The translations under genes and the position numbers were made by a program. The notes under the pieces were generated by a model. It worked only from the letters and a program-made list of their open reading frames with translations, searched no databases and had not been told where the DNA came from. This document shows positions 6,213 through 40,567 of a stretch of DNA of 64,000 nt, in pieces. Every line of letters starts with the position of its first letter. Position 1 is the stretch's first letter. The stretch is from an uncultured Gammaproteobacteria bacterium (GTDB lineage Bacteria; Patescibacteriota; Microgenomatia; Levybacterales; GWA1-39-11). Location: NCBI GenBank assembly GCA_964409875.1, contig CAYPEN010000001.1:134637-198636 (forward strand). Direction: 5' to 3'.

Positions 6213-6241
6213 GTTAAAAGAATTAAGGTTAAGAAAAAAAT

Positions 6242-7951: not shown

Positions 7952-8034
7952 AATTTTTAAGTTCAAATTTTTAATTTTTAATAAATTTTTTAAAATTGTA
8001 AATTTAAAATTATTTTGCTATTCTAAGTCATAAA

Positions 8035-8598: not shown

Positions 8599-8616
8599 GA
8601 AAGCGTTTAGAAAATT

Positions 8617-8650
8617 AGCGTTTAGGATTTTTTTATTATAGCTAAACGCT
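8617..8650 (+). terminator. Hairpin downstream of frr (AGCGTTTAG ... CTAAACGCT) with a T-run in the loop; possible terminator
   Basis: Inverted repeat agcgtttag / ctaaacgct flanks gatttttttattata. A second direct copy of agcgtttag lies at 8602-8610. Confidence 0.3.
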
Positions 8651-8680
8651 ATCCCCTAACTATCTAAACCCTAATTTTAT

Positions 8681-9296: not shown

Positions 9297-11177
9297 TTAA
9301 GAAGTTGCGAGTGGAGGAGTGTTGGTTCCGCTTCCTGTTGGTGTTTCGGCTGTATCAGTTGTGGCACCTACTCCGGAAAGTGTTGGTTCGGGAGCAGCCG
9401 AAGTTTCTGTTGGCGTTGCTCCAAGAGTTGATGCGCCTGCAGATTCTGCAACCGCCGCAGCCTGTTCAAGTACATTTCCAGATGGCGTTGCTGAGCCTTC
9501 CGCAGTCGATGTCATTGCAGAAGACGGATTTTCGATAGCAGGAGCCACGGCGCCGTCGGTTGGAAGCGCTCCATCGGAAACCTCAACTGATGCAGCTACT
9601 TGACCTGCTTGTCCCAAAACGTCCATATTTGAGACTTCAGAACTACCGGTAGCAGCTACCGAGCTCATTGCTGGGTCTACTGCCGGTTCGGGAGCAGTTG
9701 GTGTAGGAGCAGCTTCCGGTTCCACGGGGGCGCCGACTATTGAAGGAGCATCTTCTGCTACTGGTGGCATTCCTGTTCCAAATGGAGGTGGGGTTTCAGT
9801 TGAGGCGCCCGGTAGTGGGGTAGGACTTGTTTCCAAATTGAGAGCATTGGGTTCAGATGAAGCAAGGGGGGAAGTTGCTACAGGTGGTGCTTCAGGGGCA
9901 GAGGGCGCAACTCCAACAACGGGCGCATCAGGATGTGCCGCTGAAGCGTCAATTGACCAGCTTGCAGGTGTAGAGGGTGCAGCGGCTTCACCGGCCGGTG
10001 CCATATCGGTTGACGGTTGATATTCGGGAACTGAAGGCGTTGCTGCAGGCTCTGCTACTGCGGATGGGCCAGATGTGGTCGGTTCTGCCGCAGGGGAGGC
10101 TGGCCATTGAGAAGTTGCCTCGGATGCAGGAGGAGCGGAGGGTGTACCGTCTTGGGTTGCCGCTGGTGTTGTGTCTACTGCGCTTGAAGTGGTTGCGGCT
10201 TCGGTTGGAGTTCCATAACTTGGGAAAGGTTCTGATGATGAGCCGGCTGTGTTTGTAGCTGCTTCAGACGATTGCTGTTCGGAAGGTGTTTCCATTGCCG
10301 TAGTTGCGGTTTTGTCTATTTCATCCAATGCGGCATTGGTGCCTGCTGCATTTGAGACTATAGACTCGGCTTCTGAAACTGCCGCAGTGGCAGCCATGTG
10401 GGATGCTTCGGCAGCTGGAGCGGGTGAGTTATCAACAGGAGCTGCATCTGGAATGGAAGAAATGGGCTCAGTTGTTGCCGTTTCTGCAGGTGAACTGACA
10501 GATTCTAGAGCAGGGGCTGCAGGTGTTTCACTACCTATTGGGGATAGACTATCAGAGGAGGTAACTACAGGTGTTTCTGGGTTGGGAGGCGTTTGCGTCT
10601 CATTTGATGCAGTAGCAGCACTTGAAGTTATTTCTGATGAAGTATCCTGAGGCGGCTTAACACCAGCAGTCCACGTCGTTTCAATTGTGCCTTGAGCTGT
10701 TGTCGCTAAATTTTCGGGCATATTGTTTTGGGGCTGAGGTTGGGCATTTTCCATCTTTGCGCTTCCACGAAGTCCGATAATACCAAGTAGCCTATTTCCA
10801 AGTCCCGGCTTTGGAGGCGTGGCTTGTGCTGCAGCCTTTTCGGCGACCATAGAATTATGGGTGGCGTTTAAGTTAGCCATTTCTGGAGTGCCCAATGGTT
10901 TTAAAGGGTCTAGAGGTTTAATTTCAGGTGCAGGTTGTGTTTGAGCTGCGGCATCTGGGCCAGCAGGCATCGTTGAAGCAGCAGGTTGCTCGGTCCCTGC
11001 CAATGCTTTTGCAGCCACATCTTCAGCTTGCGAGATGACACCAGCCGCTTCGGGAGCTGATGCGCCCGGAGTTGGAAGTAAACCGTTACCTGTTTCTGTT
11101 GCAGCGGGAACTGCTGCTTGTGGTGCTTCAAGCGTGGTAACACCACCGCCCTGATTTTCGCCGTTGTTTGGTCCCAT
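9297..11177 (-). CDS. Large low-complexity Ala/Pro/Thr/Ser/Glu-rich protein, predicted intrinsically disordered
   Basis: 626-aa ORF with no stop for 1.9 kb, co-oriented and 46 bp downstream of 11224..12015. There is no recognisable domain, signal peptide or TM helix. The bias toward GC-rich codons leaves open frames on both strands, so the coding status is uncertain. Confidence 0.4.
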   Translation of the reverse strand: MGPNNGENQGGGVTTLEAPQAAVPAATETGNGLLPTPGASAPEAAGVISQAEDVAAKALAGTEQPAASTMPAGPDAAAQTQPAPEIKPLDPLKPLGTPEMANLNATHNSMVAEKAAAQATPPKPGLGNRLLGIIGLRGSAKMENAQPQPQNNMPENLATTAQGTIETTWTAGVKPPQDTSSEITSSAATASNETQTPPNPETPVVTSSDSLSPIGSETPAAPALESVSSPAETATTEPISSIPDAAPVDNSPAPAAEASHMAATAAVSEAESIVSNAAGTNAALDEIDKTATTAMETPSEQQSSEAATNTAGSSSEPFPSYGTPTEAATTSSAVDTTPAATQDGTPSAPPASEATSQWPASPAAEPTTSGPSAVAEPAATPSVPEYQPSTDMAPAGEAAAPSTPASWSIDASAAHPDAPVVGVAPSAPEAPPVATSPLASSEPNALNLETSPTPLPGASTETPPPFGTGMPPVAEDAPSIVGAPVEPEAAPTPTAPEPAVDPAMSSVAATGSSEVSNMDVLGQAGQVAASVEVSDGALPTDGAVAPAIENPSSAMTSTAEGSATPSGNVLEQAAAVAESAGASTLGATPTETSAAPEPTLSGVGATTDTAETPTGSGTNTPPLATS

Positions 11178-11223
11178 TACACTAAGTTACAAGAAGAGGG
11201 AATAGTTTGTCAAGAGTGGTCGA

Positions 11224-12015
11224 CTATTTCTGTCCTTTTTGCCAAGGGGCGCGTTTCAGAATAGGAGCATACACGTCGTCATTCATGTCGATTCGAAGCT
11301 CCTTGATTTCATTCTCGGTAGTATCACGGTTGGTAAACTCAATGTTTGAAAGTTCTGAAATTATTGCCAGTGGGGTTTGCTCCTGGCCCTCTCCCATAGC
11401 GGTAACAGCTCCTGCTGCCAGTCCGTCTGCAACATTTGCTTTTGTGACGCGCATTATCCTGTCGAATAAATCAGGTTTTCCCATGTAATCGTTGAGCGCA
11501 TTAAAACCCGAATGAGCTATGCTAACCCCTGTTGTTCCCCAGCGAAGAGGAGTGGTTTTGCTGTCGGTTATGATAACGCCTATATTTTGCACGCCGAATT
11601 TTTCAACAAGATGTTGCCTTATTTCATTTGCCGTCTCATAAGGGTTTTTGGGCCACAGAATATAGTAGCCATTCCCATTCGACTCGTCGATTCCTGCCGT
11701 TGGAATGAGTAAGTTTTGCGTGATGGTCAAGTAAAACCCATATTGATTTTCATTCTTATCCAAAAACATTTCACTTTCTTCTTTGACCAATTTTTCTTTA
11801 TCCTCAATTTCAGTCGTGTGATTTATCTTTTTTATCCTTCCTTCAGCTATCGAAACAATTTTTGAAGTGACAACAAGAATGGAGTTTTCCTCCATCTTAT
11901 TTATATAGGTGTCTAAAATATTAAAAAGGTTAGTGTCCTTTTCCGTTATCTTGTGGGTCTTTAGTGGTGTAATTGTCATAGAGGCAATTGTACTATAATT
12001 TAGCCTCATTGACAA
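11224..12015 (-). CDS. F420-0:gamma-glutamyl ligase (CofE)-like fold protein
   Basis: 263 aa. The motifs LLIPTAGIDESNG and GVIITDSKTTPLRWGTTGVSIAHSGF resemble the CofE/F420_ligase family. This rests on recalled similarity and was not aligned. Confidence 0.5.
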   Translation of the reverse strand: MSMRLNYSTIASMTITPLKTHKITEKDTNLFNILDTYINKMEENSILVVTSKIVSIAEGRIKKINHTTEIEDKEKLVKEESEMFLDKNENQYGFYLTITQNLLIPTAGIDESNGNGYYILWPKNPYETANEIRQHLVEKFGVQNIGVIITDSKTTPLRWGTTGVSIAHSGFNALNDYMGKPDLFDRIMRVTKANVADGLAAGAVTAMGEGQEQTPLAIISELSNIEFTNRDTTENEIKELRIDMNDDVYAPILKRAPWQKGQK

Positions 12016-26843: not shown

Positions 26844-27461
26844 CTAAAATCCGAGTTGTTCTTTGACAAAAATGACTGTGATTCTGCCTGGTTTTATTTC
26901 TGAGTTTACGATAAGAAGTTTTCGTACTTCGCTATGTACCTGAGGTCCATATTGCCCCTTTAGCCTTTTGTCCTCTTGAGGGAGTATGTAGTCGTAAATT
27001 CTTGAAAATCCCTCATCAAGATTTTTTACAATTTTTTTAGTACTTACAACCCACACCACATGCGATGACCCATAGGCATAGGTGGGTAGCTGGCTTCCGG
27101 TATTTGAGGCAACCATAACCTTGCCATCTTCGGTCACTGCGTGAACACTTCCTAATACGTATTCGGAAGCGGCCCCTAATTTTTGCATTTCAAGATGGTC
27201 TTTCTCTCTGTCCAACTTGTTCAGTTTTGATTTTACTGAATCATAGTTTCCGCTCTCATTTATCTCTTGAGTAAGACCAAGAGTATCGAGTGTACGAGAG
27301 GTTGCAGTCATAACCTCTGCTCCTTTTGGGATTAGGTTTAAAACTGCCTCTTTTGCGTCCGTTCCATTTTCTGTGATGAGTACGTGAAACCCATTTTTTT
27401 CTAGAGACACTTTGGTCTGCTGTAGTGTTTCGTCGTCTGCAAGTTGACTAAAATCTTTCAT
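26844..27461 (-). CDS. LUD-domain (LutC/YkgG-like) protein
   Basis: 205 aa. The layout and motifs (GSVHAVTEDGKVMVASNTGSQ ...) resemble the LUD/DUF162 family. Recall-based. Confidence 0.5.
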   Translation of the reverse strand: MKDFSQLADDETLQQTKVSLEKNGFHVLITENGTDAKEAVLNLIPKGAEVMTATSRTLDTLGLTQEINESGNYDSVKSKLNKLDREKDHLEMQKLGAASEYVLGSVHAVTEDGKVMVASNTGSQLPTYAYGSSHVVWVVSTKKIVKNLDEGFSRIYDYILPQEDKRLKGQYGPQVHSEVRKLLIVNSEIKPGRITVIFVKEQLGF

Positions 27462-27583
27462 ACGGTATAATTTATCCTAAAGCTATCATTCCAGCAAGTA
27501 CCCACAAAAAAGTAGGGTACATACTATGATGATACTAAGTCACCATTCAGCTAATATTAAGAATAGGTAAGTAACATACAAAT

Positions 27584-27910
27584 ATGCAGCAGCAAAAAAC
27601 ACTCGGATGCTCGTCAGTGAAGACAACACTCGATGTGATAGGTGGAAAGTGGAAGCCTCTTATTATGTTTCTTCTGGTTAAGCGCACCATGCGCTTTTCC
27701 GAGCTCCAAAAGAGTATTGCGGGTATCACTCAGAAAATGCTTACTCAGCAGTTGCGTGAGCTTGAAAGTGACGGTCTTGTCTCCCGCAAAGTATTTCCAC
27801 AAGTTCCTCCCAGGGTGGAGTATTCAATAACTACCCATGGCAAAACTTTGCTTCCTGTTCTTGATACGATGCACAAATGGGGAGAGAACCACAAAAGGCT
27901 AGCTGTTTAG
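27584..27910 (+). CDS. HxlR-family winged-helix transcriptional regulator
   Basis: 108 aa. LDVIGGKWKPLIMFLL ... RFSELQKSIAGITQKMLTQQLRELESDGLVSRKVF is a canonical HxlR sequence. Confidence 0.85.
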   Translation: MQQQKTLGCSSVKTTLDVIGGKWKPLIMFLLVKRTMRFSELQKSIAGITQKMLTQQLRELESDGLVSRKVFPQVPPRVEYSITTHGKTLLPVLDTMHKWGENHKRLAV

Positions 27911-27913
27911 CCA

Positions 27914-28168
27914 CTATTTCATCTTCACTTTGATTTGTTGAAAGGGTACGGTTATTTGAGGATTTTCCGGGATAGTATACCTGACCTGTTTTGGGTTGTA
28001 GCCTACAAGAATTACTAAAGCGATAAAGAGTATGATGCCGACACAAAGTAATAGCTGCAGAAGAGAGAATTTCATACCAATATGATACCATGTTCTCGCT
28101 TTTTGAGGATGATATGAGAGTATTGTATACTGAATAAATGGAAGTGAGGGAAAAGAAAATAAGTGCAA
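27914..28168 (-). CDS. Possible small membrane protein (antisense to the HxlR/CDF intergenic region)
   Basis: 84-aa ORF with a TM helix (LLQLLLCVGIILFIALVILVGY). It overlaps the CDF start by 30 nt. Weak. Confidence 0.2.
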   Translation of the reverse strand: MHLFSFPSLPFIQYTILSYHPQKARTWYHIGMKFSLLQLLLCVGIILFIALVILVGYNPKQVRYTIPENPQITVPFQQIKVKMK

Positions 28169-29064
28169 GAACCGTTATCGTTGCATCATTTCTCGTCGAT
28201 GTCCTAGATATTGTTCTTTCAGTTACAGTTGCTGTTATAACCGGAAGTATCATTATGCTTACCGAGGCATTGGAAGGGGTTTCTGACCTTACATCTTCAG
28301 GATTGCTTCTTATTGGGCTCAAACGGTCGACGCAAAAAGCCGACAAAACACACCCTTTTGGGTATGGCAGGGAGATATATTTCTGGACGCTTCTGGCCGC
28401 GCTTATCATGTTCGGTGTCACCTCAACAGTTTCTATATATTTTGGATGGCAGCGCATCATCCATCCTCACCCGGTAGATAACCTGATAATTGCACAAGTT
28501 GTGCTGCTTATTGCCTTTTTCTCTAATGGATATGCTTTTTTCTTAAGTTACAAAAGGCTTTTAAGAAAAAGGGGTGTCAGGCAAATTGTCAAGATTTTTT
28601 ATAAGTCATCCCTGGTCGAAACAAAAACGACCTTTATTCTCGACCTCATGGGGACAATAGCGGCATTTCTGGGAATGGTTGCACTTCTTATTTATAGGAT
28701 TACCGGGGACGTCCGGTTTGATGGAATAGGTGCGGTAGTTATCGGGATTTCACTGGCATTTTTAGCGCTCTTTCTGGTTATGGGGATACGGGACCTTCTA
28801 GTAGGGCGTAGTGCATCACCGGAAACCGAGACAAAGATAAAAAAGGCGGCTCTATTGGTTGAAGAGGTTAATGATGTACTTGATCTAAAGACGTTGCATG
28901 TGGGGTCCGAAAAATTACTGGTCAATTTGGAAGTGCATATGAAAAACAATTTGGACACTGACGAAATAGAAAAATTGATGGATGAGATAAAGGAGAATAT
29001 CCAACAAGAAGTTCCTTCTGTAAAATACATACAAGTAGAGCTCGAAACCCCCGATAAGAAGTAG
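28138..29064 (+). CDS. Cation diffusion facilitator (CDF) family metal efflux transporter
   Basis: 308 aa. It has a CDF N-terminus (ITGSIIMLTEALEGVSDL), six TM helices and a C-terminal cytoplasmic domain. Confidence 0.85.
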   Translation: MEVREKKISARTVIVASFLVDVLDIVLSVTVAVITGSIIMLTEALEGVSDLTSSGLLLIGLKRSTQKADKTHPFGYGREIYFWTLLAALIMFGVTSTVSIYFGWQRIIHPHPVDNLIIAQVVLLIAFFSNGYAFFLSYKRLLRKRGVRQIVKIFYKSSLVETKTTFILDLMGTIAAFLGMVALLIYRITGDVRFDGIGAVVIGISLAFLALFLVMGIRDLLVGRSASPETETKIKKAALLVEEVNDVLDLKTLHVGSEKLLVNLEVHMKNNLDTDEIEKLMDEIKENIQQEVPSVKYIQVELETPDKK

Positions 29065-29360
29065 TTCTTTTGAGGCTAAATCATTATTTTTGTCAACACT
29101 TGATACCCTTTTAAAAGTTGTCAAAGTATGCTATACTACGAAGTTGTTTTTAAGCCCATAGTCTAAGCTTTTGGCTCAGACTAACAATGTTTTGCACGGC
29201 TTTGTCCGTTCGTAAGTGTTCGTTATGCATGAGCACTTTTTTTGCGGCCAAAAAACAATTTTTGTGCTTTTTAAGCTTTGGAGATTTGCTTTTCAAATGA
29301 CTTGGAAAGCCAGCACTTTGAAAATTGGTTTTCGTATATTAGTTAGTTTTTTTACACACA

Positions 29361-29423
29361 ATTGATTGTGGGATAACGAGTTTAATTTTAAATTTAAATT
29401 GAAAGCGGTGTCCCACAATCAAG
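29361..29423. repeat. 13-bp inverted repeat (ATTGATTGTGGGA ... TCCCACAATCAAG) at the AT-rich edge of the GC-rich island
   Basis: Arms at 29361-29373 and 29411-29423 match 12/13, with a 37-bp AT-rich spacer (taatttta aatttaaatt). Confidence 0.5.
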
Positions 29424-29466
29424 AGTCACGATACTTTAGTCTTGTGTGGGAGAAAGGAGTCCGTCT

Positions 29467-29610
29467 ATGACGGATAAAGACGAAGGGCCTATCAGGCCCG
29501 TCAAGCGAGGATATCACAAGGAGGTAACCGTTGCGGATGTCGAGAAAGCGAAAGCTGATCGCATGAAAGCGGCAATCGCCAAGGTCCAACCGACCGTCAA
29601 GCCGGCGTAA
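29467..29610 (+). CDS. Small hypothetical protein (47 aa) inside the GC-rich island
   Basis: MTDKDEGPIRPVKRGYHKEVTVADVEKAKADRMKAAIAKVQPTVKPA, preceded by an RBS (gagaaaggag). GC-rich codon usage matches ppsA. Confidence 0.25.
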   Translation: MTDKDEGPIRPVKRGYHKEVTVADVEKAKADRMKAAIAKVQPTVKPA

Positions 29611-29654
29611 GCCGGCACCAACCCAACCCCGCACAACAAGACACGAGGTAGAAC

Positions 29655-32150
29655 ATGACGCAGTCGCCTATATCCACGGTTCCCAGCATGGGATTCGTGG
29701 GTAACTTCACGGAATTCCGGAAGCACGACATCAGCATCGTCGGTGGTAAGATCGCCAATCTTGGTGAGCTCGCCGCAGCCGGTGCTCCTGGCTCACCCGG
29801 GTTCGCCGTGAAGGTGAACGCCTGGAAGCGCTTCATCGAACTCCATCCCGAAATCGCCTCACTGGTCCGCCAGGAGCTTGATGGGATGGACGTCAACAAC
29901 GATGCAGATGTGGATCTCCGCGCAGAGCGGATCCGCACTGCCATCAAGTCGGCTCCGATGCCGGATGAGATCGCCCGCGAGATTGCTGAGGCATACTCGC
30001 AGACTTTCCCCGCCGGCACGATATGCGCGGTACGATCTTCGGCCACTGCCGAGGACCTTCCCGACGCTGCATTCGCCGGCCAGCAGGACACCCTCTTGGG
30101 AGTCCATGGCGCTTCCGACATCATCGCTGCGGTCCTGGCCTGTTGGTCTTCGATCTTCACGGCGAGGGCCATCATCTATCGCGAAGAACACGACATCTCC
30201 CACTTTGAAGTGGGGATCGCCGTAGCCGTTCAGAAGATGGTGAGGTCGACACGCTCCGGCGTGATCTTCACCCTCAACCCGATGAACAATGACCGCAAGG
30301 TCATCGTCATCGAGACGATCTACGGGCTCGGCGAGAAGTTCGTGTCCGGCAGTTCCAACGCCGACCTCTACGTTGTCGCAAAGGAAAGCCTGGAGATCGT
30401 CTCCCGGCGCCATTCCGAGCAACGCACCATGACGATCCTTGCCGAGTCAGGCATGGGGACCGTCGATGCCGAGGTCGAGGAGTACAAGCAGCAAGCCCAG
30501 AAGCTTACGGACGACCAGGTCCGGGAAGCTGCGAGCCGCGCTCTTGCCATCGAAGCCCACTACGGAGTCCCTCAAGACATCGAGTACGGCATCGATGAGG
30601 AAGGGAACTTCGTAACGCTGCAGGCGCGGCCTGTAACGACCAACAAGATCCAGATCGAGGAGGAAGCGCCACCGACTGAAACGGCGGTCATCCTCTCCGA
30701 TGGTGCGAATGACGATGGTCTCGGTGCTAGTCCTGGCGTTGCCATGGGCCCAGTACGGATCATCAACAGCCACAGCGAATGCGACCAGGTGCGTGAGGGC
30801 GACATTCTCGTCACAGAGATGACGACCCCCGACTACCTGCCCGCAATGCGCAGGGCTGCAGCCATCATCACCGAGATCGGTGGCATGAACTGCCACTCGG
30901 CCATCGTCGGCCGCGAACTCGGTATTCCGGTTATCGTTGCCGTCAAGGACGCGACGACCGGGCGTTTTACCAACGACCAACTCGTTACCGTAGACGGCTC
31001 GCACGAGCGCATCTACGAGGGCGAAGCCAAGCAGGCCTTGGCATGGGGGGCACGCCGCAAGGACCGGCTCACCAAGCTCAAGGCACAGACCGCCAACGTC
31101 CGAACCCGGACGAAAATCGGCATCATCGCCGGAGACGCCAACGGTGGCCCTGAAAAGGTAGCCGAAAGCAACGCCGACATCCTTAGCCTGGTTAGGGCTG
31201 AGCTCGGCCTGGCAAACATCGGTGTGCATCCGATGCTCTCCATTCGTGAGGGTAATTCGGAGTGGCACATCCAGCAGATGGTCGACAACATCATTCCGTT
31301 TGCTCGGGCTATGAAGCCTAAGTTCGACGCAGACCCGGAGACGGTGCTTGCGAAGAAGAAGGGTCTCACGACCTACCGGCTGACGGACTTTAAGACCAAT
31401 GAGTACGCCAACATCAACGGCTCTTCCGAATTCGAACCCACGGAAGAGAATCCCATGATGGGAGAGCGGGGCGCCCTCAAGTTCCTGCTTCAGGAACCTG
31501 CATTCAGGCTCGAATGTGAAGCGGTCCGCCGCGTCATCTTCGACCTCGGGTTCGACAACGTCATTCCGATGCTTCCGGTGGTCCGGACACCCGAGGAGCT
31601 CGAAGCGGTGCTAGTCATCGCGGAAAAGTGCGGGCTCCCGAGGGAGCGGTTCTTGATGATGTGCGAGGTTCCCTCAAACGTCATCGAGCTGCACCGGTTC
31701 CTTGCGTGCGGCATCATGGGCATCTCGGATGGCACCAACGACATGACCCAGTTCGCCTACGCTGCTGACCGTGACGGTGGCCAAAACACCAGCCGGTACG
31801 TGGCAAAGGGCAAGACTGTCCAGATCCTGTTTTCGGTGGCCCTCGTGATCACCCGGGAGCTGGGCAAGTACCATGGCCTGTGCGGCCAGATGGTTTCGGA
31901 CTTCCCGGAGACGATCCCTACGCTCGTTGCGCTGGGTATCGATTCCTTCGGCGTCGACATTGACAAGGTTGATGTGACCCGCAACCTCACCGCCCAGGCA
32001 GAAGCGGCCTTCGTTGGCCTCACCCTCGAAGAGTACCAGGAGCGTTTCGACGATCTGAATGAAATCTTCGAAGAGAAGAGGCGGCAGGTTCTGGTCGAAT
32101 CGCCTGCCTACTTGATTGCGTCCGGTCTTCGGGCGTACGCTACCGCTTAG
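29655..32150 (+). CDS. ppsA: Phosphoenolpyruvate synthase (pyruvate, water dikinase)
   Basis: 831 aa with all three PEP-utilising-enzyme domains. These are an N-terminal ATP-grasp PPDK_N domain, the phosphohistidine domain GGMNCHSAIVGRELGIPVIVAV, and a C-terminal TIM barrel with MMCEVPSNVIEL ... GISDGTNDMTQFAYAADRDGG. That segment aligns with E. coli PpsA MMCEIPSNALL ... GSNDMTQLALGLDRDSG. Confidence 0.85.
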   Translation: MTQSPISTVPSMGFVGNFTEFRKHDISIVGGKIANLGELAAAGAPGSPGFAVKVNAWKRFIELHPEIASLVRQELDGMDVNNDADVDLRAERIRTAIKSAPMPDEIAREIAEAYSQTFPAGTICAVRSSATAEDLPDAAFAGQQDTLLGVHGASDIIAAVLACWSSIFTARAIIYREEHDISHFEVGIAVAVQKMVRSTRSGVIFTLNPMNNDRKVIVIETIYGLGEKFVSGSSNADLYVVAKESLEIVSRRHSEQRTMTILAESGMGTVDAEVEEYKQQAQKLTDDQVREAASRALAIEAHYGVPQDIEYGIDEEGNFVTLQARPVTTNKIQIEEEAPPTETAVILSDGANDDGLGASPGVAMGPVRIINSHSECDQVREGDILVTEMTTPDYLPAMRRAAAIITEIGGMNCHSAIVGRELGIPVIVAVKDATTGRFTNDQLVTVDGSHERIYEGEAKQALAWGARRKDRLTKLKAQTANVRTRTKIGIIAGDANGGPEKVAESNADILSLVRAELGLANIGVHPMLSIREGNSEWHIQQMVDNIIPFARAMKPKFDADPETVLAKKKGLTTYRLTDFKTNEYANINGSSEFEPTEENPMMGERGALKFLLQEPAFRLECEAVRRVIFDLGFDNVIPMLPVVRTPEELEAVLVIAEKCGLPRERFLMMCEVPSNVIELHRFLACGIMGISDGTNDMTQFAYAADRDGGQNTSRYVAKGKTVQILFSVALVITRELGKYHGLCGQMVSDFPETIPTLVALGIDSFGVDIDKVDVTRNLTAQAEAAFVGLTLEEYQERFDDLNEIFEEKRRQVLVESPAYLIASGLRAYATA

Positions 32151-32404
32151 TCCGGAGCTTCATCCGTGAAGATCCGGCTCATCGTTACGAAAACCAATAG
32201 CCGTCCGACCGCGAGGTCGGACACCGGGGACGGGCCGTACGGTCCATCCCCACCCCTCCGCCGTTTTGGCGGGAATCCCAATTGGGTTCCCCCGCCTTCA
32301 CGGCGGGGGGACCTACAATAAATTTCCTCAAATTACTCTTACTCTGTTTTGTGCTGTCTCCCAGATACAAGAACTATCATAAATTTCCTAAGGAGGTGAA
32401 ATAA

Positions 32405-32593
32405 ATGGCAAAATACGGAAAAAAAGCACAGGAAAAAATATCCGATGTCATGCATGAATATGGGAAAGGAAAGCTTAAAATGGGAAGAAGCGGAAAAAAG
32501 GTAACCAATAGAAGACAAGCGGTAGCAATAGGCATATCCGAAGCTAGAAAAGAAGGGGACAAGGTTCCAACCCCGAAGAGACATTACGCTTGA
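32405..32593 (+). CDS. Small basic conserved-looking protein (62 aa)
   Basis: MAKYGKKAQEKISDVMHEYGKGKLKMGRSGKKVTNRRQAVAIGISEARKEG, with a strong RBS (ctaaggaggtgaaataa ATG). Confidence 0.45.
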   Translation: MAKYGKKAQEKISDVMHEYGKGKLKMGRSGKKVTNRRQAVAIGISEARKEGDKVPTPKRHYA

Positions 32594-32616
32594 TTAGAAA
32601 TTAGAAGAAAGGAGTA

Positions 32617-32901
32617 ATGGGAATGAAAAAGGTTAATGCAGAGAAAATTGAACCAAATGTTGCGCTTTGGGAACTTGAGATAGAGCAAGTTGAGGGAAGG
32701 TCACTAGAGAGAAAAGGAAGGGATGAGATAAACGAGATGTTGTCTGAAGGATGGATACTGCTCTCGATTTATACGCTAAGGTATAAGGACGCAGAGGACA
32801 CGTGGTTTGAGCGCCCAATGGCTATTTTGGGGTTACCCAAAAACCCGGTTAAAAGCAAAAAGGAAAAAAAGAAAAATTATCCGGAGTCTGTTATTTTGTG
32901 A
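32617..32901 (+). CDS. Hypothetical protein (94 aa)
   Basis: RBS aaaggag 7 nt upstream. No motif was recognised. Confidence 0.35.
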   Translation: MGMKKVNAEKIEPNVALWELEIEQVEGRSLERKGRDEINEMLSEGWILLSIYTLRYKDAEDTWFERPMAILGLPKNPVKSKKEKKKNYPESVIL

Positions 32902-32906
32902 GGACT

Positions 32907-33209
32907 TTATAAGTTGGGTAATTTATTTTTATCAAACTCAAAGGTCTCATAAATACGTGATTCTATAAGTATCTGGCTATAATCGGGAATTGGTGAAGAA
33001 GTAGAACTGTTTCCAACTTCCCATTTTTTGAGATTAACAACTCTATTTCCGAACAAGTAATAGTAGTCTACTAATGTATCGTCCCGATTGTTTATCTTCA
33101 GTGCCTCATCGGCGTCATACCGTATGGGTAAGTCTTCAATCAAAACAGTATCTTTATTTTCTGAACGAAGATAATCTATTAAGTTTGCATTATCGGTTTT
33201 TGTAACCAC
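32907..33209 (-). CDS. Hypothetical protein (100 aa)
   Basis: ORF only. Confidence 0.3.
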   Translation of the reverse strand: MVTKTDNANLIDYLRSENKDTVLIEDLPIRYDADEALKINNRDDTLVDYYYLFGNRVVNLKKWEVGNSSTSSPIPDYSQILIESRIYETFEFDKNKLPNL

Positions 33210-33682
33210 AATATTAAATTGCGTTGTGTAGATGTGAGGAACAGAATTTTTCTCAGGTTTTTTTCTAGAGCATTTTTAAAAGAGATAGTGTAGTTTAGGT
33301 ATTTTTTATCATTCAAAGAAAGTTGGTTGTCATCTTCCTGCACGATAAATAATGAAGGGTACCTGAAGCTAAAAAAACCACTTTTACTTTTGTATATTTT
33401 CCAATTTGTCCTATCTATTGTAGGAGTAGCTGTTACAGCCCGTGTTGCTTTTGTAGTCGGTTTGCCAGAGATAAGTACCATTTTTTCAGCGTATTTGTTT
33501 TGGAAACTCCTTGCAAGTGGCACCTCTTGGAATGTATCAAAAGTTATTGCAGTAAGAAGGATAATAATGATAAAAAAAATTAGACAAATCAATATTTTAA
33601 ACTTTACATTGAAATTATTGATGCCATTAAATTTAATTCCTGAGGTTTCTGGCCCTGCTAAACTATTCTTTTTTTTCTCCAT
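33179..33682 (-). CDS. Membrane-anchored hypothetical protein
   Basis: 167 aa with an N-terminal TM helix (KILICLIFFIIIILLTAITF). Confidence 0.4.
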   Translation of the reverse strand: MEKKKNSLAGPETSGIKFNGINNFNVKFKILICLIFFIIIILLTAITFDTFQEVPLARSFQNKYAEKMVLISGKPTTKATRAVTATPTIDRTNWKIYKSKSGFFSFRYPSLFIVQEDDNQLSLNDKKYLNYTISFKNALEKNLRKILFLTSTQRNLILWLQKPIMQT

Positions 33683-33722
33683 AACATAAGCTTACAGAGC
33701 AGTAATGATAGAAAACAAGTGG

Positions 33723-34349
33723 TTATTTACCGAGGATTGGTGCGGATATTGAAGTTGCGTGGGTATATGCGTCATGCATTGAAGTATACATTTTGGGATA
33801 GTCTTTATTTATATAAGCATCCAGTATTGCCTTCTCATTCAATACGTGCCGTGCAAAATAATTCTGGGCATTCATATACGTATCCGCATTTTTACCTTGG
33901 GAGAGAAGGGAAGAGAAATCATCGGTAAATCTTTGGAGGCTCTGTAATGAAAGCGTTATTTTTGCATTATCATTTGCCCTTCTTGCATCGGCATAATCAA
34001 GGAATGCATTGATGTGGTTGGTCCAAATGGTGAGGAATTTGTCTTTTGTGTCAACGCCGTATAGATTTTCCATTTGTGCTGCCAAAAGCTTAGTGTTGTT
34101 GTCTACAGCTTGTTTTGCAGCAAGAAAATCAGCACGTTTTTCATAGCGTGCAATCATCATTTCTCCTCCGACGAGCGCATGTTCACCCATGAGCGTGTCA
34201 AGTGCTTCTTGTTGTTGCTGTGCAGTGGGGGTGGGGGTTGGAGATTGTTGCTGTGCAAAGACATGCTCAAAAGCCGGAGCGCGAACTATGACAGGAGCCG
34301 TCATCATAACAAAAATGAGCGCTAGGAGAAAAAATTGATTTTTTAACAT
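33723..34349 (-). CDS. Secreted helical protein of unknown function
   Basis: 208 aa with a signal peptide (MLKNQFFLLALIFVMMTAPVIVRAPA) and a Gln-rich linker. Confidence 0.5.
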   Translation of the reverse strand: MLKNQFFLLALIFVMMTAPVIVRAPAFEHVFAQQQSPTPTPTAQQQQEALDTLMGEHALVGGEMMIARYEKRADFLAAKQAVDNNTKLLAAQMENLYGVDTKDKFLTIWTNHINAFLDYADARRANDNAKITLSLQSLQRFTDDFSSLLSQGKNADTYMNAQNYFARHVLNEKAILDAYINKDYPKMYTSMHDAYTHATSISAPILGK

Positions 34350-34522
34350 GAGGACAGTTTAGTATTTCGGGACGAAGAGTATGTGAATACTCCGTTAGAG
34401 TTTTACAAGAGCTTACTACTCGAATTTGAAGAGGAAGAACTCATCATAGAGCTAATATTCTCGGCGTTCAAGAGAAAAATGCCACTTTTCAAAATGACTT
34501 TCTCCATTTAATATATTTCAAA

Positions 34523-34945
34523 ATGCCAAGAAGAGAATACGGTGGAACCCAGATAAGAGGGCCGGAAGATTTAATATATATAAAAAGTAGTGACGATGGA
34601 GCAAAAGTAGATAATCCTGCGGAGCGGGAGTTCGCCCGGCTGCTTCTTGATAAGACTTCTCTTGAAATTACACACGAGCCAACGTTTTTTTATTATCATG
34701 ACGACGAAGGGATACTGAGAGGCACGCTTCCTGATTTTCGTGTGGTTAATCCCGATACTGGGGTCCAGACTTATATCGAAATAACGACCTCGAGTAATGG
34801 GAAAGGGAGACAGCAGTCAATTATGCAACGCTTAGCACCCGATGTGCACTACGTGGTTTTCAGAAGAGAAAAATTGGAAGCAATACAGCAAAAATTTCCC
34901 GAATATCATTTTTTCAATGGAAACGGAAACGGGGGCTCGAAATAA
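34523..34945 (+). CDS. Hypothetical protein (possible nuclease-like fold)
   Basis: 140 aa. The segment LPDFRVVN...TYIEITTS is weakly reminiscent of PD-(D/E)xK, but this is unverified. Confidence 0.35.
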   Translation: MPRREYGGTQIRGPEDLIYIKSSDDGAKVDNPAEREFARLLLDKTSLEITHEPTFFYYHDDEGILRGTLPDFRVVNPDTGVQTYIEITTSSNGKGRQQSIMQRLAPDVHYVVFRREKLEAIQQKFPEYHFFNGNGNGGSK

Positions 34946-34997
34946 TATTGCATTTTGCCTCTTGTTTGTTAACATGTAGTATTCTTGCCCCAACCAA

Positions 34998-35720
34998 ATG
35001 GCTGAACGCTTAATCTCTCTTATATCAGGCGGTGGAACCACCATGGAGCAAATTGGCATGGCGATACGCGACGGTGGAATTCTGGGACTTGAGTTTGCGG
35101 GGGTTATCGCAAGTGAGCCTGGCTTGAGGGGAATATCCCGTGCGCGTGAGCTCAAAATGGGCGTTCCGGTGGCAGTAATAAATCCCCTGGATTTTACCGG
35201 CGATGACGGACTACCCGATGGGTATGGGTTCGGTAAAGCAATTCTTAAATTTGCAAAGCAGCAAGGAGCAACCGTTCTGACACAGAATGGATGGCTTCCC
35301 TGGACACCACATAATGTAATTGAGGCATATAAAGATGCGATATTTAACCAACATCCGGGTCCGCTTCCAGAAACTCGAAACCTCCATGGGATGCAGCCCC
35401 ATGCAGCAATGCATAGATTTGCCCGGCTTACGCACCGTTATGAAGGGACAGAGGTCGTGACGCATAGGGTTGTAGCTGGCATGGATGAAGGAGTTTTGGT
35501 GGGAATGCGAAAAGTTCCTCAGTATTTTCATGACTGGCCGAAAAAAATACAGCAGCGTGCATTGCCAGTAGAACACCAACTGCAAATTGATATACTCAAT
35601 CAATTTGTAAAAGGTGAGATACAAGAAACCCCACAAGAGCCGCATTTTATGAGGCCGGGTGAGGAAAAAATACTGAGGGAAGCAAGAAAATATGCCCGTA
35701 AAATGTATCCAAACGGTTAA
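34998..35720 (+). CDS. purN: Phosphoribosylglycinamide formyltransferase (PurN-like)
   Basis: 240 aa. LISLISGGGTTMEQI aligns with PurN's VLISGNGSNLQAI, and NQHPGPLPETRNLHG with NIHPSLLPKYPGLH. The folate-binding C-terminus is EVVTHRVVAGMDEGVLVG. Confidence 0.7.
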   Translation: MAERLISLISGGGTTMEQIGMAIRDGGILGLEFAGVIASEPGLRGISRARELKMGVPVAVINPLDFTGDDGLPDGYGFGKAILKFAKQQGATVLTQNGWLPWTPHNVIEAYKDAIFNQHPGPLPETRNLHGMQPHAAMHRFARLTHRYEGTEVVTHRVVAGMDEGVLVGMRKVPQYFHDWPKKIQQRALPVEHQLQIDILNQFVKGEIQETPQEPHFMRPGEEKILREARKYARKMYPNG

Positions 35721-35723
35721 TAT

Positions 35724-37064
35724 ATGCCTGTAATTGCGGAAGGAAATATAGTCGGAATTGTTGACGGTGGAGGCCGGGGGGCCGCTCTGGCACGCGCGTA
35801 TGAAAGAAGTCCTCATGTTAACAGAATAGTTGTCATCCCGGGTAACGATCTTACCGCTGAGATGGCAACGAAGCCTACTTTTGTTTTTCCGAACATCAAA
35901 AATATAAGTGCGGATGCTATTGCCGATAAATTTGAAGAGCTAGGTGTAACTCTTGCCGATGTTGCCCAGGATAACGCCATTGAGGCAGGGGTAACAGACA
36001 CTTTAAGAAACAGGGGAATTGCGACCATCGGACCATCGAAAGATGCAGGGCAAATTGAGTGGAGCAAGGCGTACGCGCGGGGGCTTGGGAAAAAAGCAGG
36101 CTTGCAACAACCCCGTTTTGAAACATTTACCAGAGTTGAGCCTGCAGATTGGTACATAGACCATAGCGGAGAGGAAAACTTTGTTGTAAAAGCCAACGGG
36201 CTTGCCGAAGGGAAAGGTGTAAAGCTTGCGCACAGCTCGGAGGAGGCAAAAAGAATGGTTCGACAGCTTCGTGAGCAGCATGAAAGGGCTTCGGAAATTT
36301 TTCTCATTGAGGAAATGGTTGCGGGTGAAGAATTCTCGACTTTTTTTGCCTCAGACGGGGAGCATATAAAACTACTCGGGCACGCCCAGGACCACAAAAG
36401 AGAGGGAAATTACGACACCGGGGAAAATACGGGAGGAATGGGAGCAAGTACACCCCCAAGACTGATGACACGCACTGTCGAGATGGTAGTTGAGCAAGAA
36501 ATTAAGAAAATGATGGGGGCACTTTCAGAGGAAGGTAGGCCATATGAGGGAGTTGGATATTATGGGGGGATGCTTAATGAGGTTTTGAAACGGGTAAACA
36601 ACATTGAGTGGAATGCAAGGTGGGGGGATCCTGAGGTCGAGATAGTTGCTCCCGGAATAACGTCTGATATGTTCGAGCTTGCGGTTGCAATTGTTGAAAA
36701 AAGTTTGGATAAGTACAATTTGACAACAGACAGCCTTACGCGGGTGGTTGTTGCAGGGGCATCGAGGGGTTATCCAAGAGACTATAGCGCAGTAAAAGGT
36801 AAAGAAATATTTGGACTTGATTATGTCATGCATATGGACGGCGTGGAATTGTATGGCGCAGGGGTAAAAGTAGATGAAGAAAGAAAGCATTGGGCAAAGG
36901 GAGGAAGACTTTTTTATATAGTAGGACAAGGGGAAAACGTGGTAGAGGCGCGGGAGAAAGCATATGGAGCAATGGCTAGAGTGCATGTTGACGGGAATAA
37001 TTTGATGTACAGGACAGATATCGGATGGAAAGACGTTCAGAGACTGAGGGATGAGGGCTATTAA
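35724..37064 (+). CDS. purD: Phosphoribosylamine--glycine ligase
   Basis: 446 aa with the ATP-grasp architecture and PurD N-terminal and C-terminal domains. It lies immediately downstream of purN. Confidence 0.85.
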   Translation: MPVIAEGNIVGIVDGGGRGAALARAYERSPHVNRIVVIPGNDLTAEMATKPTFVFPNIKNISADAIADKFEELGVTLADVAQDNAIEAGVTDTLRNRGIATIGPSKDAGQIEWSKAYARGLGKKAGLQQPRFETFTRVEPADWYIDHSGEENFVVKANGLAEGKGVKLAHSSEEAKRMVRQLREQHERASEIFLIEEMVAGEEFSTFFASDGEHIKLLGHAQDHKREGNYDTGENTGGMGASTPPRLMTRTVEMVVEQEIKKMMGALSEEGRPYEGVGYYGGMLNEVLKRVNNIEWNARWGDPEVEIVAPGITSDMFELAVAIVEKSLDKYNLTTDSLTRVVVAGASRGYPRDYSAVKGKEIFGLDYVMHMDGVELYGAGVKVDEERKHWAKGGRLFYIVGQGENVVEAREKAYGAMARVHVDGNNLMYRTDIGWKDVQRLRDEGY

Positions 37065-38105: not shown

Positions 38106-39323
38106 ATGTATTATTTCTCCGAACTTGTCAACAAAAAAGTCGTCAATGAAAATAAGAAGACGATAGGTCATCTGAAAGACTTCCTTTTTCTTGCTGAGGA
38201 ATCCCCGAAAATTACAAAAATATTCGTCAAAAAAGGAAAGCGGAAAAACATCGCAATCCAGATAAAAGACATAAAGACAATCAACGGGCAGATAGTTGTT
38301 GACCGTGATTTTGTTGAAAAGGAAGTAGCCGAGCGCGAATTTTCGATGGCTAACAACCTGCTGAACAGACAGATAATAGATGTTAGGGGTGGAAAAGTCG
38401 TTAGGGTGAATGACATTGCAATTCAAGATAAAGAGGATAAGTCCGAATATTACATCGCTGGAGTAGACGTTGGATTTCGAGCTATTCTTCGGTGGTTCAA
38501 ATTAGAAAAGGCCGCAACTCCAATCTATAAAGCGTTGAAGCTGTATTCTCATCCTCATTTTTTGTCATGGGGAGATATCGAGCCTCTAGAACTTGCCAAC
38601 GGAACAGTCCAATTGAAAAAAGATATCGGGGATTTGGAAAGAATGCGACCTGAGGATCTGGCCGATTACTTGGAAAAGACTAACATCAAAAACGTCAACA
38701 AGATTATCACCGACCTTTCGGATGAATACGCTGCTGACGTTATTGAGGACTTGAATGTTAATTACCAGACTGCACTTTTTAAGCGATTTGCTCCGGAAAA
38801 AGCGACAAAAATTATAGATTTACTTGAGCCCGACGAGGCGGTTGATATCCTTTTGACATTGCCTCGGGAGAAACGGGTTGAGATTTTAGAAGGGCTCGAA
38901 AAAACAAAACACGAAGAATTAAGAGAGCTCATGAAGTATTCAAAAACATCGGTCGGAAAACTCATAAATCCAGATTTTATCTCTATAGAATCCGAAATTA
39001 CAGCTTCTGAGGCGCTTTCACAGGTAAAAGAAGCATTACCTGATGAACCATTTTCCAAGTATATATACACAGTCAACAAAGAAGGCATCTTAGTTGGAGT
39101 TTTCGAGCTCCATAATTTACTTATCCAACAATCTGATACTCCTGTATATAAATTCATGGAACAAGATGTTGTTGTTGCTCATCTAACAACACCACAAGAG
39201 ATTGCTCTCAAACGGATGCTGAAATATAAACTATATGCGCTGCCTGTGGTGGGGGATAACAAAAAAATGATAGGAGTAGTGACTTTTGACGACATGATAG
39301 AGGACATTGAAGAAAAGTTGTAA
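38106..39323 (+). CDS. Cytoplasmic PRC-barrel + MgtE-N + tandem-CBS regulatory protein with no pore domain
   Basis: 405 aa. It has N-terminal PRC-barrel-like segments, an MgtE_N helical domain (DLADYLEKTNIKNV...EAVDILLTLPREKRVEILEGL) and a CBS pair (LYALPVVGDNKKMIGVVTFDDMIEDI). No TM helices. The stop/start overlap with the NRAMP gene reads ATGA. Confidence 0.7.
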   Translation: MYYFSELVNKKVVNENKKTIGHLKDFLFLAEESPKITKIFVKKGKRKNIAIQIKDIKTINGQIVVDRDFVEKEVAEREFSMANNLLNRQIIDVRGGKVVRVNDIAIQDKEDKSEYYIAGVDVGFRAILRWFKLEKAATPIYKALKLYSHPHFLSWGDIEPLELANGTVQLKKDIGDLERMRPEDLADYLEKTNIKNVNKIITDLSDEYAADVIEDLNVNYQTALFKRFAPEKATKIIDLLEPDEAVDILLTLPREKRVEILEGLEKTKHEELRELMKYSKTSVGKLINPDFISIESEITASEALSQVKEALPDEPFSKYIYTVNKEGILVGVFELHNLLIQQSDTPVYKFMEQDVVVAHLTTPQEIALKRMLKYKLYALPVVGDNKKMIGVVTFDDMIEDIEEKL

Positions 39324-40567
39324 TGAAAAAATTCATCAGAGGGATTAGGATCAAACTTCTTATACTTGTTGCTGTGGTTGGTCCGGGATTAATCACGGCT
39401 TTTGCAGATAACGATGCAGGCGGAGTTGCCACGTATTCTGTTGCAGCGTCAAAATTCGGGTACTCCATGCTCACAACTCTTATTCCAATAACCATAGTTC
39501 TTATGACAACTCAGGAAATCGGGTCAAGGCTTGCAGTTGTCAGCGGGAAAGGTCTTGGGGATTTAATACGTGAGAAATTCGGCATACGGGTGTCTGTTTT
39601 GATTTTTGCGCTCCTTTTCTTTGTCAATTTCGGTGTCATCATCCAGGATGTTGGAGGTCTTAAAGATGGACTTGCGCTTTTTCATCTCAATTTATGGATT
39701 TTTCTTCCTGTAGTGATAGCATTTTTGTTTTTCTTTATTACTAAGGCCTCATATGCGAAAGTTGAAAAGTTTTTCCTTTTCTTAATATTTTTCTACGTTG
39801 CTTATTTTGTTAGCGCCATCCTTTCAAAACCTGATTGGGGACTTGTCGGAAAATCACTCATCATGCCGACAGGAAAAATATCGTTCGATTATCTCTATAC
39901 ATCAATTGCAGTGCTTGGAACAACTGTTACAGCCTGGGGGCAATTCTTCATAAATAGCTATGTGAAAGATAAAAAATTGACGGTCGATAGAATCGGATAT
40001 AACAGGCTTGAGATTTATGTCGGGGCATTTTTGACTGATATTGTCAGTCTTTTCATGATGGTAGCTGTTGCGGCGACGGTATTTGCTCATAACGTTCATA
40101 TTCAGGGTGCTGCTGACGCGGCGCTTGCTATTAAGCCTTTCGCGGGAGACCTTGCCGGTGTAATGTTTGGTGCGGGACTTATTGTTGCAGGTTTTATCGG
40201 AGCTGCAATAGTGCCATTGGCAACGGCGTACGCTTTTTCGGAATTTTTTGGATATGAAGGGAGTTTAGACGTTAGTTTCTCAAGAAGCAGACTTTTTTAT
40301 GGCTTTTTTATCGTACAAGTACTTTTGGGAGTTGCTGCAATAAGTTTTCCCAACTTTGCTCTTTTCAAATTCACACTTTATGCGGATTTCGTAAATGGTT
40401 TGTTCTTGCCAGTGATATTTTTCTTCTTGTATAAATTTGCAAATGATCGGGAAATTATGGGTAAGTATAGGAACAGCAGGCTTCAGAATGTTCTTCTTGT
40501 CGGCTCTGGAATTGTAATAACAATTGCAGCCCTGGTTGGTGGCATCGGTAGTTTTATCGGCCGGTAA
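39323..40567 (+). CDS. NRAMP-family divalent metal transporter (MntH-like, or NRMT-like)
   Basis: 414 aa. GPGLITAFADNDAGGVATYSVAASKFGY carries the NRAMP signature DPGN-like region, and there are 11-12 TM helices. Confidence 0.85.
   Translation: MKKFIRGIRIKLLILVAVVGPGLITAFADNDAGGVATYSVAASKFGYSMLTTLIPITIVLMTTQEIGSRLAVVSGKGLGDLIREKFGIRVSVLIFALLFFVNFGVIIQDVGGLKDGLALFHLNLWIFLPVVIAFLFFFITKASYAKVEKFFLFLIFFYVAYFVSAILSKPDWGLVGKSLIMPTGKISFDYLYTSIAVLGTTVTAWGQFFINSYVKDKKLTVDRIGYNRLEIYVGAFLTDIVSLFMMVAVAATVFAHNVHIQGAADAALAIKPFAGDLAGVMFGAGLIVAGFIGAAIVPLATAYAFSEFFGYEGSLDVSFSRSRLFYGFFIVQVLLGVAAISFPNFALFKFTLYADFVNGLFLPVIFFFLYKFANDREIMGKYRNSRLQNVLLVGSGIVITIAALVGGIGSFIGR

Follow-up and report, generated by a model that had tools for sequence, protein, structure and literature searches.

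A GC-rich PEP synthase unit in a low-GC bacterial genome, with an open reading frame apparently replaced in place between conserved untranslated regions

The 64-kb stretch of bacterial DNA analysed here (from contig CAYPEN010000001.1, hereafter the window) contains an abrupt GC-rich block that carries ppsA, the gene for phosphoenolpyruvate (PEP) synthase. Positions 29440-32320 have a GC content of 55-62%, and the flanks 33-43%. In 300-nt segments the values were 0.54-0.62 over approximately 29400-32400 and 0.33-0.45 to either side, and finer steps placed the rise at ~29440 and the fall at ~32320. This domain comprises a short upstream open reading frame (ORF), ppsA and its 3' untranslated region (UTR), and so exceeds the ORF segment that appears to have been exchanged (see below). 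GC contents at the first, second and third codon positions (GC1, GC2 and GC3) of ppsA were 0.62, 0.42 and 0.75, respectively; GC3 of the 59 other ORFs in the window was 0.30-0.48, with a single outlier, a 91-aa ORF, at 0.64. Codon use was also far from background, with ATC making up 84% of isoleucine codons (background 24%) and AGA none of the arginine codons (background 30%). Antisense ORFs of 187-273 aa lie opposite ppsA, because TTA, CTA and TCA codons are nearly missing from its sense frame (0, 1 and 4 occurrences). The excess of gene over flank GC was +0.18 at this locus, compared with +0.025 +/- 0.029 at 69 other ppsA loci used as a control. A 23S rRNA gene was ruled out as the source of the 2.9-kb block, as no rRNA was found with Rfam at gathering score and a long ORF is present there, and there are no tRNA or tmRNA genes in the window. 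Two other ORFs in the window have elevated GC, at 670-2370 (minus strand, 566 aa, GC 0.49) and 9297-11177 (minus strand, 626 aa, GC 0.54), neither with a Pfam match. Their GC1 and GC2 are raised (0.48-0.65) and their GC3 is only 0.31-0.38, and we rejected them as cases of the same phenomenon since the rise stems from amino-acid composition.

The ppsA product contains the Pfam domains PPDK_N (residues 27-339, 1.7e-90), PEP-utilizers (380-450, 3e-26) and PEP-utilizers_C (471-783, 7.4e-28). It scored 674.8 bits against NF005057, the NCBIfam PEP synthase equivalog (cut-off 598), and 644.6 against the stricter TIGR01418, below the cut-off of 739.75. Its alignment spans the full length of solved PEP synthases (8a8e, 9dae, 2ols); the catalytic histidine (GGMNCH) in GGMNCHSAIVGRELGIP aligned with GGRTSHAAIVSRELGIP of chain 8a8e_A, and the C-terminal cysteine in LCGQ with ICGQ of the same chain. 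The order of ATP-grasp PPDK_N, mobile His domain and PEP-binding TIM barrel is that of known PpsA proteins, and the RSSATAEDLP and GTNDxTQ motifs are present. The window protein differs from them in a ~45-residue C-terminal extension, ending GLRAYATA, in being no more than 47% identical to any PpsA beyond its small clade, and in having asparagine two residues before the catalytic histidine in place of the regulatory threonine (GGMNCH versus GGRTSH). In enterobacterial PEP synthases the threonine at that position is the target of phosphorylation by PSRP, and control of the window PpsA by such a kinase is unlikely, because the threonine is replaced. The sequence-only reading had described the jump in composition at 29440-32340, GC3-rich codons, antisense ORFs, GC-stem hairpins with GNRA loops, an inverted repeat upstream, stacked GC hairpins downstream, and a complete ppsA with catalytic motifs. 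The GC profiles, codon use and antisense frames agree with that description, as do the three domains, the NF005057 score and the aligned catalytic residues of the protein, and the repeat arms and hairpins were found at the positions given in Table 1. Judged by these features the enzyme putatively interconverts pyruvate and PEP. About two thirds of candidate phyla radiation (CPR) genomes lack pyruvate kinase, and PEP synthase has been proposed for PEP/pyruvate interconversion (Jaffe et al. 2020, PMC7304191). Where members of the present group lack pyruvate kinase, the reaction may, by inference from that paper, run toward pyruvate and ATP, and a gluconeogenic role is not the sole possible reading of a PEP synthase here.

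Four related genomes, represented by contigs L112, L194, L202 and L205, carry a ppsA gene at the same site, between czcD and a DUF6496 gene, and every copy is GC-rich. They share the neighbourhood GH63-Zn ribbon-LUD-HxlR-(czcD)-ppsA-DUF6496-MgtE-Nramp, with L205 lacking czcD and DUF6496. Flanking proteins in these genomes were mostly 68-96% identical to those of the window (LUD only 46-61%), and their PpsA proteins were 33-46% identical. The closest relative, L194, was found via the purD cluster of the window, and the same sequence is present in five other contigs from JGI, NCBI and ENA assemblies. Its flanking proteins were 70-96% identical (DUF6496 92%, PurD 92%, Nramp 93%, DoxX 96%), and its ppsA, with a GC3 of 0.79, encodes a protein merely 33% identical to that of the window. 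L205 and L202 are syntenic and have an L194-type PpsA (79% and 59% identity to that of L194; GC3 0.66 and 0.75). In L112, neighbours in the same order were 56-83% identical and PpsA (P0004), the next protein match, was 46% identical; its ppsA has a GC3 of 0.62 versus 0.23-0.47 in its neighbours. One site is thus occupied by three allele classes, A in the window, B in L112 and C in L194, L205 and L202, which are 33-46% identical to each other at the protein level. Within class C, PpsA was more divergent than the flanks (59-60% versus 69-82%). Because class C spans the group and is present in the closest relative, parsimony over the five syntenic genomes suggests that class A in the window is the derived state, most simply a replacement. 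The window ppsA is not orthologous to the copy in its closest relative, although each of the four relatives does have a ppsA there. The sequence-only reading had proposed the gain of a new gluconeogenic step; since relatives already hold ppsA at this site, the evidence argues for replacement and not for gain.

The limits of the divergent segment coincide with the ORF. Alignment of the window with L194 by blastn runs from the end of czcD through the intergenic region, a long hairpin, the upstream ORF and the ribosome-binding site (RBS) of ppsA, and ends at 29653, 2 nt before the ATG. Homology restarts at 32143, within the last codons and 7 nt short of the end of the stop codon, and from there extends across the 3' UTR and into DUF6496. 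UTRs and flanks were 69-87% identical to L194 at the nucleotide level, a range that also holds for the remaining flanks. Leader and 3' UTR thus resemble L194 to the same degree as the surrounding DNA does, and the ORF alone differs. A mosaic within the ORF was ruled out by comparison with L001, a contig described below, since the window was uniformly nearer to L001 than to L112 along the whole protein. The architecture of the UTRs is common to all allele classes.

Class A was also found at another locus, in L001, a Logan contig, and L002, a metagenome-assembled genome (MAG; GCA_035549315.1) labelled Patescibacteria group. Searching 5.8 billion proteins by word index returned the window PpsA itself, then L001 (72% identity) and L002 (62%), and then dropped to 46% or less (Dehalococcoidia and other Chloroflexota). 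The three proteins formed a clade with 100% bootstrap support in neighbour-joining analysis. With HMMER run exhaustively against 1.84 billion cluster representatives, no relative exceeding 48% identity turned up outside these low-GC genomes, and no high-GC source of PpsA was found among 15 billion proteins. Searches for a mobile reservoir gave nothing above 37% identity in IMG/VR viral contigs, GenBank phages and PLSDB plasmids; GTDB species representatives gave the L002 genome only, and JGI metagenomes nothing above 44%. The nearest outside proteins were from Chloroflexota (Dehalococcoidia, Tepidiforma), at no more than 47% identity, which gives no support to the actinobacterial-type donor that had been suggested from the composition. 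The identity of each allele class to a Chloroflexota-type PpsA core (42-55%) was higher than its identity to the other classes, and a Chloroflexota-like ultimate source of PpsA is plausible on these comparisons. The genome to which the window belongs is low-GC and is probably from Patescibacteria.

In L001 and L002 the gene order is RibD_C, tRNA-Asn, ppsA, rpoD, dnaG, a beta-lactamase-like gene, rpe, rpiB and pfkB. Their PpsA proteins were 62% identical, neighbouring proteins 43-55% and rpoD 87%. Because the gene order is shared and the divergence of PpsA fits that of its neighbours, ppsA was probably at this tRNA-Asn/rpoD site before L001 and L002 split. Both copies form GC-rich islands, with GC3 of 0.59 and 0.67 versus 0.18-0.41 in neighbouring genes. 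Integration at the tRNA gene is unlikely, as ppsA lies on the 5' side of tRNA-Asn rather than at its 3' end. More distant homologues were also seen. Two metagenome ppsA genes (L093, 3859-6264, and L096, 6001-8397; 37% identity) lie near a contig end, with GC 0.17 and 0.10 above their flanks, and may represent either additional examples of the phenomenon or chimeras. Full-length PEP synthase homologues with 30-35% identity are encoded on many giant-virus MAG contigs (GVMAG) from IMG/VR (within L115-L193).

All eight known members of the allele groups are in low-GC genomes, and in seven of these GC3 of ppsA is 0.59-0.79. Paired with the value for neighbouring genes, the seven are 0.75/0.40, 0.79/0.43, 0.75/0.34, 0.66/0.40, 0.62/0.37, 0.59/~0.24 and 0.67/~0.30. 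No ppsA copy of these groups was found in a high-GC context in the collections searched. This composition is shared by sequences close to synonymous saturation. Among the ppsA genes of the window, L001 and L002, identity at four-fold degenerate sites was 0.31-0.36 versus a random expectation of 0.26-0.28, and GC at these sites was 0.50-0.74, compared with 0.14-0.33 in most neighbours (the RibD_C gene being higher). Within class C the corresponding identity was 0.38-0.45 versus an expected 0.30-0.32, and GC was 0.61-0.75 versus 0.26-0.46 in the flanks. From these comparisons we conclude that GC-richness appears to be a maintained property of the gene unit and carries no imprint of a donor genome. 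As a standing property of the unit in low-GC genomes, the high GC content does not speak for a high-GC donor. GC3 is at the background level (0.37-0.42) in rpsB, tsf, frr and metK, all of them highly expressed, and we therefore rejected translational selection or general codon adaptation as the cause. Selection on the transcript, for stability or structure, and GC-biased repair tied to frequent recombination at the locus are candidate causes, and here we can offer only a guess.

Table 1. Positions of the ppsA unit and associated features in the window
Feature	Position	Strand	Basis
czcD, upstream neighbour of ppsA	28138-29064		Pfam Cation_efflux
Terminator-like hairpin and T-run, ends czcD; left limit of the ppsA unit	29214-29238	+	10-bp stem then TTTTTTGC
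Long 5' hairpin, arms TTGATTGTGGGA (29362-29373) and TCCCACAATCAA (29411-29422)	29362-29422	+	-28.5 kcal/mol, z = -7.8
Conserved leader block: right arm, GAGTCACGATAC, second left-arm copy TCTTGTGTGGGA (29440-29451), RBS AAGGAG of the upstream ORF (29454-29459)	29411-29459	+	Identity to L001
Upstream ORF, 47 aa	29467-29610	+	47-aa ORF, 72% identical, in L194
Small hairpin GCCGGC-GTAA-GCCGGC, contains stop codon of upstream ORF	29601-29616	+	Sequence
C/A-rich linker and ppsA RBS GAGGT (29645-29649); homology to L194 ends within	29617-29654	+	Alignment, blastn
ppsA, PEP synthase (pyruvate, water dikinase), 831 aa, allele class A, putatively replaced segment	29655-32150	+	Domains, profiles, catalytic residues, GC3
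Structured GC-rich 3' UTR, four main helices	32151-32312	+	RNAalifold, 6 sequences, 34 pairs
3' UTR P1	~32152-32178	+	RNAalifold consensus
3' UTR single-stranded motif ACGAAAACCAA	32187-32197	+	RNAalifold consensus
3' UTR P2 with GCGA (GNRA) loop 32211-32214	32204-32221	+	RNAalifold consensus
3' UTR P3	~32231-32246	+	RNAalifold consensus
3' UTR P4 enclosing inner hairpin	32254-32310	+	RNAalifold consensus

The long hairpin of the 5' leader is also present upstream of ppsA in L194, L205, L112, L001 and L002, with a length of 57-113 nt in the four that were folded. At its base 94% of cells in the alignment were paired, with compensatory changes in 6 of 14 pairs, and a slid register gave 30-44% pairing. 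In three of four sequences the sense strand folded better than the antisense by 4-11 kcal/mol, owing to G-U pairs, and this better fold of the sense strand suggests that the element is RNA and not a palindrome in the DNA. The conserved block that follows was 84% identical to L001 over 57 nt despite saturated synonymous sites, and its core motif CCCACRRTCAAGARTCAC was seen a single time in the window and, in a set of 193 loci, solely upstream of these ppsA genes. The second copy of the left arm could pair with the right arm instead; this alternative hairpin was predicted in four of four sequences (-14.8 to -18.9 kcal/mol), although its z-scores were only modest (-1.3 to -2.6). The upstream ORF had no Pfam or NCBIfam match. 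Differences from its L194 counterpart fall at first, second and third codon positions in the numbers 7, 9 and 16, concentrated at the third, and at the corresponding position L001, L112 and L202 have unrelated ORFs of 22-57 aa. It is possibly translated as a leader peptide. A promoter scan gave no convincing sigma-70 promoter for ppsA.

The helices of the 3' UTR are arranged around a conserved ACGAAACCAA stretch. In the six-sequence alignment 87.8% of cells were paired and 13 pairs showed compensatory changes, compared with 5.0 +/- 1.6 in shuffled alignments (0/500 reaching the observed value) and 1-4 in slid ones. A covariance model built from this alignment matched only its six source units, extending a truncated L001 row to full length, and gave no further match in ~1 Mb of other ppsA loci. 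Neither the 5' leader nor the 3' UTR had a match in Rfam 15 at gathering score, and a permissive Rfam search of 29150-32450 returned noise (best E-values 0.07-2.5, far below gathering scores). These conserved structures with compensatory changes suggest two candidate new RNA elements, one in the leader and one in the 3' UTR.

Several further observations concern the unit and its relatives. A C-terminal tail (L)G(I/L)R-x(3-5)-A-A before the stop codon (32125-32150 in the window) is common to classes A and C (L001, L194, L205, L202), and is present neither in class B nor in L114, a related gene on a short contig. In L195 (1245-3659, minus strand), and also in L199 and L201, all public assemblies, an 804-aa ORF with no Pfam hit has been called opposite ppsA and ppsA itself is uncalled. 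TTA, CTA and TCA codons number 0, 0 and 1 in the class C gene, and the antisense frame is open because these codons are nearly missing; the 804-aa ORF is an annotation artefact that hides ppsA in GCA_964568885.1. L202 has a bAvd/23S_rRNA_IVP-like ORF near ppsA and a weak match to an IS200/IS605 Y1 transposase directly after it (5535-5885 and 10791-11456); nothing equivalent to either is present in the matching part of the window. The purN-like gene of the window (34998-35720, Formyl_trans_N) was 38% identical to its positional counterpart in L194 (9203-9997), and the adjoining purD 92% identical, so that purN may be a second in-place replacement in the same neighbourhood. The purL/purQ-like genes of L194 (11344-15036) and two extra ORFs (5351-8697) were unmatched in the corresponding window stretch. 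Identity to L194 at four-fold sites was uneven, at 0.65 for purD (35724-37064) and 0.31-0.35, near random, for MgtE and Nramp (38106-39323 and 39323-40567), which suggests a recombinant mosaic genome. Elsewhere in the window, a SAM-I/IV riboswitch (RF01725; 58427-58537, plus strand; 47.1 bits, gathering score 41.1) is located immediately upstream of metK (58564-59679), which encodes S-adenosylmethionine synthetase, and an ORF at 51387-56840 (plus strand) encodes 1817 aa from a GTG start, with ordinary composition (GC3 0.41 over the ATG-started part).

The explanation that we favour, and hold to be probable though by no means secure, is that a ppsA unit resides in a low-GC genome, that its ORF has been replaced in place through conserved UTRs, and that the unit has stayed GC-rich. 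The unit would consist of the structured 5' leader (hairpin, conserved block and upstream ORF), the PEP synthase ORF and the four-helix 3' UTR, and would occupy the site between czcD and DUF6496 in at least four related genomes with the ORF alone varying. Incoming DNA from another member of the same bacterial group would have recombined through the conserved leader and 3' UTR, the class A ORF thereby displacing class C, and some gene-specific force would hold the unit GC-rich against the AT-ward drift of these genomes. A possible, and more tentative, proposal is that in these low-GC, reduced-genome bacteria the locus acts as a cassette, with divergent ORFs recombined in and out between two structured RNA elements and the transcript actively held at ~60% GC by selection on the mRNA or by recombination-linked GC-biased repair. 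Several points weigh against the favoured explanation. L114 has a GC3 of 0.43 and looks ameliorated, which fits decay of a foreign composition better than active maintenance, and the spread of GC3 among members could reflect different residence times. The window allele has the second-highest GC3 (0.75), and by our own calculation from the Muto-Osawa relations its GC1, GC2 and GC3 fit an unameliorated gene from a donor of ~60-63% GC. Neighbour-joining trees conflict on a single origin of the classes, which had 95-98% support with 200 sequences and lost it with 155 broader ones. No class A donor was identified, the nearest copy being just 72% identical, and the window is placed in Patescibacteria on the strength of a single labelled relative, the L002 MAG. 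The recombination event was not directly observed, and the sharp boundaries at the ORF edges could stem from old allele classes whose flanks have been homogenised by recombination.

One rival explanation is the recent import of the whole island, still unameliorated, from a high-GC organism outside the group, of actinobacterial or, better, Chloroflexota type. Composition and codon use are typical of a ~60% GC genome, the nearest outside proteins are from Chloroflexota contigs of 0.67-0.69 GC, the ORF and its counterpart in the closest relative are not orthologues, and the gradient of GC3 among members (0.79 to 0.43) resembles stages of amelioration. However, the best outside match is no more than 47% identical and none is actinobacterial, all members known are in low-GC genomes, and the boundaries lie exactly at the ORF ends, which is not expected of illegitimate insertion. 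The GC-rich leader and 3' UTR are as near to L194 as the flanking DNA is, and so did not arrive together with the ORF. At the window locus, where ppsA is surrounded by czcD, HxlR, DUF6496 and ORFs that lack Pfam hits, there was no integrase, no transposase and no tRNA gene, and no direct repeat was seen, though no dedicated repeat search was made. We consider such an import distinctly unlikely. Of the lateral transfer put forward in the sequence-only reading, a lateral origin of the ORF has partial support, from the contrast between PpsA (33%) and flanks (70-96%) in L194 and from parsimony; the high-GC donor is not supported, given the low-GC genomes of all eight members, the GC-rich UTRs and the lack of any copy found in a high-GC context. 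That reading had also allowed for a chimeric contig, in which the gene of a high-GC organism was joined to a low-GC contig. The abrupt change in composition would fit a chimera, but the Logan assemblies of two single runs, SRR11845619 and SRR11845633, are 100% identical to window positions 27000-35000, with both junctions included. Single-run Logan assemblies also contain a record of the 831-aa product, whereas the 820-aa form annotated by NCBI gave no record. The same arrangement is also present in relatives from Logan, JGI, ENA and NCBI assemblies, and conserved UTR elements run across the composition boundary. At the level of assemblies, as distinct from read-level coverage, the chimera is refuted as far as assemblies can show, and we give it a negligible probability. 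An ancestor with two or three ppsA paralogues of similar UTRs, followed by differential loss and UTR-mediated exchange between loci within a genome, would account for class A at two different loci, for the UTR architecture common to all classes and for the ORF-precise boundaries. This is unlikely in our estimation: among the contigs seen, which cover only parts of the genomes, none has two ppsA copies (the 64-kb window has one), and the model alone leaves the GC-richness unexplained. Rapid evolution targeted to the gene in place, for example by a GC-biased mutational process confined to the transcription unit and involving no transfer, is very improbable. The divergence of PpsA beyond its flanks even within class C, and the coincidence of the GC-rich domain with the transcript and not with the swapped ORF, would fit it, but an ORF with 72% identity to L001 at another locus and 33% to the closest relative is impossible by divergence in place. 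In addition, the transcribed UTRs are not hyper-divergent, and no diversity-generating retroelement was seen near the window locus.

The known concept closest to the favoured replacement is xenologous gene displacement in situ, reportedly described by Omelchenko et al. in Genome Biology in 2003. The term is in use elsewhere (PMC9425974, PMC1274311). As in such displacements, a gene in a conserved neighbourhood has apparently been replaced by a distant homologue of the same function while its neighbours are still orthologous; position is conserved in L112, L194, L202 and L205, and ppsA has diverged far beyond its neighbours and clusters with genes from other genomes. Here, in contrast, the replacement would be exact to the ORF and the conserved structured UTRs stay, and at least three allele classes, all atypical in composition, occupy one site in a narrow group. 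The ORF-exact replacement between structured UTRs, the several allele classes per site and the persistent GC-richness in low-GC genomes are the new features of this case. Compared with horizontally acquired islands undergoing amelioration (Lawrence and Ochman 1997, as cited in PMC12455944), the locus shares the sharp contrast with its host, the foreign codon usage and the phylogenetic incongruence. Unlike a classical island, it has no mobility genes, tRNA target or direct repeats (none seen, without a dedicated search), and its atypical composition persists across orthologues near synonymous saturation and extends to the leader and 3' UTR. Deeply divergent alleles, abrupt loss of homology at their edges and flanks of genome-typical similarity also recall other exchangeable loci. 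At capsule and O-antigen loci and competence pherotype genes, divergent allele classes in conserved flanks are exchanged by homologous recombination. These loci encode surface or signalling molecules under diversifying selection, whereas ppsA encodes a cytoplasmic enzyme of central metabolism, and we know of no selective reason for PpsA diversity. The reported effects of GC-biased gene conversion in bacteria are a few percentage points. Lassalle et al. (PLoS Genetics, 2015) are said to have linked recombination to raised GC3 in particular genes by this process. The ppsA locus would likewise combine recombination with raised GC3 in a particular gene, but its GC3 excess is 0.25-0.41.

An unusual GC content is commonly taken as a sign of recently acquired foreign DNA. 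At this locus that rule would be only half right, the ORF apparently having been replaced and the GC-richness belonging to the locus (seven of eight copies, and the UTRs). If this is true, it is a warning for composition-based detection of horizontal transfer in streamlined genomes, and the unit would be a tractable system in which to tell selection apart from biased gene conversion as influences on how bacterial GC content evolves. Glycolysis in these bacteria, about whose central metabolism little is understood, would then have two candidate new RNA elements attached to its last step, and PEP synthase, the proposed stand-in for their missing pyruvate kinase, would be unusually dynamic. Should the locus prove to be a cassette whose composition is actively maintained, it would offer a natural test case for what sets bacterial GC content.

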